Part shown: piece after piece, positions 16,271-16,803 of the stretch
Numbering within the stretch: position 1 is the stretch's first letter
How the letters are laid out: each line of letters starts with the position of its first letter
Source: Escherichia coli
GTDB taxonomy: Bacteria > Pseudomonadota > Gammaproteobacteria > Enterobacterales > Enterobacteriaceae
Strand: one strand, 5' to 3'
Length of the DNA stretch: 64,000 nucleotides
Assembly: GCF_002854065.1 (NCBI RefSeq)
Contig: NZ_CP024147.1
Translations under genes and position numbers: made by a program
Notes under the pieces: generated by a model
Seen by the model: only the letters and a program-made list of their open reading frames with translations
Told to the model about the DNA's origin: nothing
Databases searched by the model: none

Positions 16271-16584
16271 AACGACCTACGTTAATTACCTCATTGACGG
16301 CATGAAGTGTATCAAAATGAAATGAACAGGATATGTGCGACCACTCACAAATTAACTTTCAATACTTTCCAGGGTATCGTCATGTCAATTAAATACCTTT
16401 AAATATCAATAGGTTAAAGTATAAAAATCAGCATAAACCCTGATTTTTGTCAAAAAAAATGACGGGGATAACCATATTTTATGGCGATAACATCATTCGT
16501 TATGTGGTTAATACAAAAAAGGGGCTGAGACCATATTTCAAGCAATTACCGGATAATTACCAGGCAAAATTTGAGTTAAATTTA
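16271..16584. promoter_or_regulatory. tdcA-tdcR divergent control region
   Basis: AT-rich intergenic region between divergent tdcA and tdcR; the tdc promoter with CRP/IHF control is placed here by established knowledge; individual sites not resolved by eye. Confidence 0.4.
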
Positions 16585-16803
16585 ATGAGCAAGTTCTCAA
16601 ATTTTATTATAAATAAACCATTTTCAGCGATAAATAATGTGGCACGTCACATTTTTTCACGCTATTTGTTGGAGAACAAACATTTATTTTATCAATATTT
16701 TAAAATTTCGAATACAGGTATTGATCATCTCGAACAATTGATTAACGTCAACTTTTTCTCTTCTGACAGGACGTCATTTTGTGAATGCAATCGTTTTCCA
16801 TAA
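16585..16803 (+). CDS. tdcR: Putative tdc operon regulator
   Basis: Track ORF 16447..16803 (118 aa); the shorter 72-aa form from ATG 16585 (MSKFSNFIINKPF...) fits the length I recall; start uncertain. Confidence 0.65.
   Translation: MSKFSNFIINKPFSAINNVARHIFSRYLLENKHLFYQYFKISNTGIDHLEQLINVNFFSSDRTSFCECNRFP

Follow-up and report, generated by a model that had tools for sequence, protein, structure and literature searches.

The translation start of tdcR and the in-frame open stretch preceding it in Escherichia coli

The closest described system is TdcR of E. coli K-12 (b3119; NF008507/PRK11424, "transcriptional activator TdcR"), which occupies the same locus with the same synteny and is divergent from tdcA. 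The tdcR locus has a published genetic phenotype, namely the activation of tdcABC, and the classical work on it is said to include trans-complementation, a minicell product, and start-codon mutagenesis. A paper from 1989 reportedly deduced a 99-residue product with an Mr of 12,000, and Hagewood et al. reportedly mapped the translation start of tdcR by mutagenesis in 1994. The window analyzed here, a 64,000-nt stretch of E. coli DNA, contained this locus in a form that showed no essential difference from K-12; the DNA region was 98.3% identical, and the 72-aa product differed at four residues.

Gene callers disagree on the length of tdcR, and other public calls reported 114, 120, 136, 160, and 165 aa depending on the strain and the caller, with 114 aa being common; therefore, the start ambiguity is real in public data. 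The choice of the start determines whether the product has a mass of 8.6 kDa or of 13.6–14 kDa, and whether 138 bp are regarded as coding sequence or as tdc control DNA. The tdcR start is nevertheless an ordinary and already settled annotation question. The reference annotation is already placed at the 72-aa start and the comparative evidence agrees with it, thus leaving nothing to correct.

Open frame, candidate starts, and annotation

In the window, tdcR was located on the plus strand, divergent from and directly upstream of tdcA-tdcB-tdcC, and the same layout was found in K-12 and in all related loci. The divergent neighbor tdcA (15332–16270, minus strand), which encodes a LysR-type regulator, was used as the baseline for selection, and tdcB (14244–15233) and tdcC (12891–14222) were also encoded on the minus strand. 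tdcR was followed by yhaB and yhaC, which are also encoded on the plus strand. The 758-bp interval between the tdcA start and yhaB was found in 5,392 of 5,426 complete E. coli genomes, and the region was 100% identical to that of strain 100416 and 98.3–98.5% identical to that of K-12-like strains. The window carried the allele of strain 100416, with Val at core residue 19 (T at 16640), where all other aligned sequences had Ala. The G+C content was 30% for the tdcR ORF and 35% for the stretch 16271–17028.

The tdcR frame was free of stops from 16447 to the TAA at 16801–16803, a length of 118 codons, and was bounded upstream by an in-frame TGA at 16441–16443 (plus strand). A sequence-only reading of this DNA had described the frame as open from an ATG at 16447, with an internal ATG at 16585 giving a 72-aa product. 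Both the open frame and the internal start, which lies 46 codons into the frame and yields a product of 8.6 kDa, were confirmed. However, codon 16447–16449 is TTG, and the first in-frame ATG is 16459–16461 (114 aa), so the observation was only partly confirmed due to the misread first codon. The length of 72 aa, which that reading had given for the annotated protein, was found in RefSeq both for the 100%-identical strain (CDS at 1815–2033 of locus L001) and for K-12 b3119 (NP_417589.4), and ATG 16585 was used by RefSeq/PGAP in every E. coli genome opened. The annotated CDS (16585–16803, plus strand; 72 aa and TAA), hereafter the core, is placed there by RefSeq, by NF008507, and by the Escherichia alignment. 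The 46 in-frame codons upstream of it (16447–16584, plus strand), hereafter the extension, are probably leader or promoter-proximal DNA that is non-coding. The NCBIfam model NF008507 (equivalog, 72 positions) matched the translation with 171.5 bits (E = 3.7e-51) against a cut-off of 100. Its positions 1–72 corresponded to residues 47–118 of the 118-aa translation, which is exactly the ATG 16585 product, and nothing in the first 46 residues was matched by this model.

The length of the frame was rejected as proof of coding. A stop-free run of 119 codons occurred in 3.3% of the dinucleotide shuffles of 16271–17028, and a run of 72 codons occurred in 60% of these; open runs of 72 codons thus arise readily when such AT-rich DNA is shuffled, and ORF length is weak evidence either way. 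The probability that the 46 extra codons are open by chance was approximately 0.03, as calculated from the stop frequency of the other five frames (0.076 per codon).

Besides ATG 16585, three in-frame candidate starts were present on the plus strand, namely TTG 16447–16449 (118 aa, 14.1 kDa), which is the start-type codon nearest to the upstream in-frame stop, ATG 16459–16461 (114 aa, 13.6 kDa), which is a frequent choice of gene callers, and GTG 16504–16506 (99 aa, 11.85 kDa). The 99-aa form matches the Mr 12,000 product that was reportedly deduced in 1989. The 3' end of the 16S rRNA was paired with the 22 nt preceding each of the four candidate starts, and a correctly spaced Shine-Dalgarno (SD)-like pairing was found for ATG 16585 only. 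This pairing involved a weak SD-like element, GAG at 16573–16575 (plus strand), with a duplex energy of −2.2 kcal/mol and a spacing of 8 nt according to the count of the duplex tool. Anti-SD pairing was absent from the 22 nt scanned before TTG 16447 and before ATG 16459 (+0.6 kcal/mol each), whereas GTG 16504 had an SD-like pairing (−1.9 kcal/mol) that was 16 nt off and hence too far. The element of ATG 16585 was very weak compared with those of tdcA (−6.9 kcal/mol) and yhaB (−7.6 kcal/mol), and SD pairing favors 16585 only weakly. A similar start ambiguity was observed for yhaB, with the mechanical ORF starting at TTG 17029 (189 aa) and the RefSeq CDS at ATG 17059 (179 aa); the latter is the start with the good SD of −7.6 kcal/mol.

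A constitutive sigma-70 promoter of tdcR with the sequence TTTAAA-16-TATAAA has been predicted (PMC3946193). This sequence, which is a prediction only, matched 16398–16403 and 16420–16425 on the plus strand. With a promoter at 16398–16425, the transcript would include all four candidate starts, and the start question is therefore not decided by it. No plus-strand promoter or terminator for tdcR was detected in a consensus promoter/terminator scan. In addition, no tdcR/b3119 entry was present in the supplements of a ribosome-profiling paper using tetracycline inhibition (PMC4909307) or in those of the TRAINSPOTTER N-terminomics paper (PMC13245402).

Conservation across and within Escherichia species

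No tdcR homologs were found outside Escherichia/Shigella in a word-indexed search of 5.8 billion proteins or in a scan of 100,044 species genomes, and none were found outside Escherichia when 1.84 billion representatives were searched exhaustively with an HMM. A 117-aa protein from a read-archive assembly (P0055) was rejected as a distant homolog. It is tdcR-like, with every A of the DNA appearing as G (for example, KQLPDNYQ became GRLPSGCR), and we take it to be an artifact of base-conversion sequencing chemistry that survived into the protein database.

The alignment consisted of 22 loci, including 12 E. coli strains, one metagenomic contig (L003), three E. coli-proximal loci (L004, which is Escherichia sp. 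MOD1-EC7003, L020, and L024), E. whittamii, Escherichia sp. E4930, and four loci of the E. ruysiae type (L006–L008 and L023, the last of which is labelled E. coli). Contig L003 (CAUHML010000178.1) belongs to a MAG named "uncultured Bacteroides sp."; it contained the E. coli tdcA-tdcR region with 98.3% identity to the window, was identical to K-12 across the tdcR ORF, and is a binning contaminant. Based on tdcA, the dS to the window was 0.11 for L004 and 0.33–0.37 for the more distant E. whittamii, E. ruysiae, and E4930.

ATG 16585 and the preceding TTAAATTTA were kept in 21 of the 22 loci, with L023 (ATT) as the exception. The 72-codon frame of the core contained zero indels in the 22 loci and was intact in 20 of these (all except L023, with its ATT, and G749, with a nonsense codon), and the stop was located at the same position or, in L004, L020, and L024, six codons later. 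The ruysiae-like L023 (1001–1003; GCA_002110245.1) has ATT, yet a 72-aa TdcR with an initial M is on record (P0042, 8 member sequences). The upstream starts were not kept in this manner. L004, L024, and every distant lineage had TTA in place of TTG 16447 and lacked GTG 16504, and ATG 16459 was AAG or CAA in E. whittamii, E4930, and E. ruysiae. Furthermore, E. whittamii, E4930, E. ruysiae, and L023 had a common 1-nt gap near 16513 that breaks the frame there, and the distant lineages contained 27–31 open codons upstream of 16585 without an ATG. In E. coli and its nearest relatives, the corresponding 1-nt indel (16513, plus strand) makes the upstream frame continuous with that of tdcR, and the frame from ATG 16459 was open in L004, L020, and L024. 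Because the shorter state is common to the three more distant lineages, we infer that the extra base near 16513 and ATG 16459 are derived features of the lineage that comprises E. coli and its closest relatives. Conservation of the N-terminal extension had been named in the sequence-only reading as a check on the long form. When this comparison was made, the upstream starts and the upstream frame were lost in three distant lineages, whereas ATG 16585 and the core frame persisted. ATG 16585 is the annotated start and, as judged from these alignments, the only one conserved across Escherichia.

The raw divergence from the distant lineages was 0.20–0.25 for the extension, 0.18–0.26 for the spacer and the downstream flank, and 0.12–0.15 for the core; the difference between extension and core had p values of 0.003 (E. 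ruysiae) and 0.02 (E4930). Against the nearest lineage, L004, the extension was more conserved than the flanks (p = 0.006). It differed from L004 by three synonymous and three non-synonymous changes, and the resulting dN/dS of 0.23 is based on these six changes only and is not significant.

Within E. coli, 4,119 of 5,388 genomes carried the extension with an identity of 99% or more. The frame from ATG 16459 was open in all 12 strains first sampled, and 58 of 60 evenly sampled genomes had no net indel or insertion in the extension. Natural disruptions were also observed. In strain AH62, the A8 run that separates 16447 from 16459 was one A shorter, so that only the TTG form is removed. Strain 800 had a 1-nt deletion at approximately 16489 that shifts the frame of the 114- and 118-aa forms, and isolate AHB12 carried an IS1A inserted at approximately 16553, within the extension. 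The 72-aa ORF was intact and annotated in all three. The deletions in AH62 and strain 800 could be assembly errors, a doubt from which the IS1 insertion in AHB12 is exempt. Polymorphisms in E. coli included 11 non-synonymous, one nonsense, and three synonymous changes in the core, and four non-synonymous changes and one synonymous change in the extension. The level of polymorphism was 0.043 and 0.069 for the two parts of the ORF compared with 0.12–0.14 for the flanks. In strain G749 (L015, 615–833), TCA was replaced by TAA at core codon 25, and the gene is annotated by PGAP as a pseudogene.

Other inactivated alleles of tdcR were found in some E. coli, including a 102-aa cluster of 110 member sequences with a frameshift near core codon 55, and two tdcR proteins look like fusions to foreign sequence; the records of these inactivated or fused variants are P0018, P0026, and P0033. 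During evolution in the mouse gut, IS5 has been reported to insert recurrently in the tdcA/tdcR intergenic region, at frequencies of up to 65%, and an A-to-C change was reported there as well (PMC7518454), and a rough coordinate conversion places these changes at approximately 16312–16348 of the window. Considering these IS5 reports and the IS1A of AHB12, insertion sequences seem to target the tdcA/tdcR region.

Coding character of the core and the surrounding control DNA

No sign of protein-level purifying selection was detected in the core or in the extension, either by dN/dS or by an excess of changes at third positions. The dN/dS of the core against five other lineages was 0.56–1.5, compared with 0.009–0.025 for tdcA in the same genomes. 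The numbers of variable sites at the three codon positions were 19, 22, and 21 in the core and 16, 14, and 12 in the extension, compared with 6, 6, and 90 in tdcA. Conservation was instead arranged in nucleotide blocks (16465–16491, 16685–16696, 16772–16796, and 16835–16856) that run past the ORF boundaries and the stop. On the other hand, only one nonsense change was observed in the core, whereas 4.1 were expected among at least 87 substitutions (P = 0.07).

TdcR contained no Pfam domain and had no PDB relative in a profile search. AlphaFold predicted no confident fold or helices, with pLDDT values of 37 (72-aa form) and 42 (114-aa form), which is a weak result given the shallow alignment. 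A recognizable DNA-binding (helix-turn-helix) domain was therefore absent from the Pfam, PDB profile, and AlphaFold results, the last with this shallow alignment. An RNA gene was considered and rejected because Rfam had no match over the tdcR ORF and the consensus structure obtained with RNAalifold was weak, with almost no covariation. Inside the core, an IHF consensus match, TATCAATATTTTA, was located at 16690–16702, and a 25-nt invariant block, CGTCATTTTGTGAATGCAATCGTTT, was located at 16772–16796; the latter has CATTTTGTG in common with the CRP-like site downstream of tdcR. Conservation at both places looks to be at the nucleotide level.

The spacer between tdcA and tdcR contained the CRP-type site of the tdcABC promoter, TGTGCGACCACTCACA, at 16334–16349, inside a 30-nt invariant block (16329–16358). 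An IHF consensus match, TATCAATAGGTTA, was located at 16404–16416 (plus strand), approximately 112 bp upstream of the tdc start point as estimated from the CRP site, and an action of IHF on tdc is cited in the literature (PMC9426608). Genomic SELEX has detected binding of RNA polymerase and H-NS in this spacer (PMC3946193), and the tdcA/tdcR interval has been listed as an H-NS-bound "promoter island" (PMC3661553). Inside the extension, a 27-nt block, GGGATAACCATATTTTATGGCGATAAC, with a CCATA-N3-TATGG dyad (16465–16491) was invariant in every lineage; it was the longest invariant run of the extension among eight lineage representatives, and its surroundings varied at approximately 30% of the sites. 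From this pattern, the block is a candidate site for protein binding in the tdc control region, possibly by TdcA. The sequence-only reading had proposed that the upstream codons overlap the tdc control region, and both the invariant block and the published H-NS-bound promoter island are in line with this proposal.

A second CRP-type palindrome, TGTGTTGAGGATCACA, was found at 16838–16853 (within the block 16835–16856), 35 nt after the tdcR stop. Matches to TGTG-N8-CACA in the whole 64 kb were limited to this site and to that of the tdc promoter. The TGTG and TCACA of 16838–16853 were identical in all Escherichia lineages, including those without yhaBC, and two spacer positions varied. The yhaB-yhaC pair (17029–18807) is a variable insert according to the loci surveyed (L006, L009, L012–L015, L023, L024, and L027). 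In E. ruysiae, Escherichia sp. E4930, L023, and L024, tdcR led straight to rnpB/garK, and in Nissle, FY10, A25, G749, and AHB12, only remnants of yhaB were present, which are annotated as partial pseudogenes. An Rfam match to OmrA-B between tdcR and yhaB (16912–16986, plus strand) was below the threshold (21.2 bits against a gathering cut-off of 40, E = 0.29) and is most likely due to chance.

Alternative readings and comparison with known systems

The best-supported product, with a probability that we place at about 0.75, is the 72-aa TdcR translated from ATG 16585, since the long frame appeared only in the lineage of E. coli and its closest relatives. Initiation at ATG 16585 would yield a basic protein of 72 residues and 8.6 kDa, annotated as the activator of the divergent tdcABCDEFG operon, and the 46 in-frame codons at 16447–16584 would lie outside the gene product. 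The open stretch probably arose through a 1-nt insertion near 16513 and the gain of ATG 16459 by point mutation, and it would represent tdcR leader or promoter-proximal DNA as well as upstream control DNA of the tdc promoter. The earlier suspicion that the upstream 46 codons are an artifact of the open frame is in line with the annotation, the loss in other lineages, the flank-like divergence, and the natural disruptions. The corresponding interpretation, namely that the annotated form is the one of 72 aa and that the upstream codons are probably incidental, is thereby supported. It is unlikely that a 114-aa form from ATG 16459 is made in E. coli and its closest relatives, either alone or beside the 72-aa form, as a young, lineage-specific N-terminal extension translated without an SD sequence from an A-rich leader. 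Such a form would be consistent with the frame being open in all 12 first-sampled E. coli strains, L004, L020, and L024, with the lack of a net indel or insertion in 58 of 60 genomes, with the low probability of an open extension by chance (~0.03), and with the low divergence from L004 (dN/dS of 0.23, six changes, not significant); moreover, the predicted promoter at 16398–16425 would put ATG 16459 on the transcript, and many callers report 114 aa. However, ATG 16459 has no anti-SD pairing, three other Escherichia lineages lack both this ATG and the frame, and the polymorphisms of the extension are non-synonymous and synonymous in a ratio of 4:1. In addition, strain 800 and AHB12 disrupt the extension and keep the core, the curated family model and RefSeq exclude the longer form, and no confident fold of the extension emerged from AlphaFold (pLDDT 42). 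In E. coli itself, ATG 16459 is thus unlikely to serve as a start. Translation of a 118-aa form from codon 16447 appears extremely improbable. Although no other start-type codon lies between this codon and the upstream in-frame stop, it is a TTG without an SD, it is replaced by TTA in L004 and L024 as well as in every distant lineage, and the deletion in the A8 run of AH62 throws it out of frame and leaves everything downstream intact.

The more far-reaching alternative is that the locus makes no functional protein, in which case the ORF would be incidental in an AT-rich, H-NS-bound stretch and the locus would act through DNA or RNA; in the DNA version, binding sites or the titration of a silencer would explain the positive effect on tdc. 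The near-neutral evolution of the core relative to tdcA (dN/dS of 0.56–1.5 against 0.009–0.025; codon positions 19, 22, and 21 against 6, 6, and 90) argues for this alternative, as do the E. coli polymorphisms (11 non-synonymous and one nonsense against three synonymous), the 72-codon runs in 60% of the shuffles, and the lack of a homolog outside Escherichia, of a Pfam or PDB match, and of a confident fold. The pseudogene alleles, the nucleotide blocks that continue past the stop codon, and the published promoter island with H-NS binding point in the same direction. Nevertheless, no indel was seen in the 72-codon frame, and its ATG and stop position were retained, across lineages that are up to 15% diverged and also in a further locus (L025). 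Nonsense changes are fewer than expected (1 against 4.1, P = 0.07), and the core diverges approximately half as fast as the flanks. RNAalifold gave no convincing covariation and Rfam no match. The trans-complementation, minicell product, and start-codon mutagenesis reported in the classical work likewise speak for a protein. On balance, the absence of a functional protein is improbable. A broader formulation, in which tdcR is either an extended cis- or trans-acting DNA/RNA control region of tdc or a very young, near-neutral protein of Escherichia only, is based on the equal rates at the three codon positions and on the conserved blocks with IHF-like and CRP-like motifs, and seems doubtful. If it were true that the tdcR locus is not kept for a conserved protein, the position of the start would be a secondary question.

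Irrespective of the start, a protein that E. coli regulatory databases list as a transcription factor was found to be restricted to one genus, without a recognizable fold and without protein-level purifying selection, and these properties are a reason to re-test how the tdcR locus activates tdc. That TdcR is a genus-restricted ORF without a signature of selection at the protein level is a by-product of modest wider interest.

Compared with known systems, the extension resembles N-terminally over-extended gene calls, which are caused by a longest-ORF bias in AT-rich DNA, in that an SD and conservation between species are both lacking. In contrast to usual calls of this kind, it is unusually long (46 codons, p ~0.03) and highly conserved within E. 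coli, and it is therefore not a trivial over-call. The gene itself is comparable to the genus-restricted orphan small ORFs in H-NS-bound AT-rich islands; tdcR has a G+C content of 30%, is confined to Escherichia/Shigella, is located in a promoter island, lacks a domain or fold, and has a near-neutral dN/dS. Unlike most such orphan ORFs, however, tdcR has a published phenotype and a frame that has been kept across several Escherichia species.
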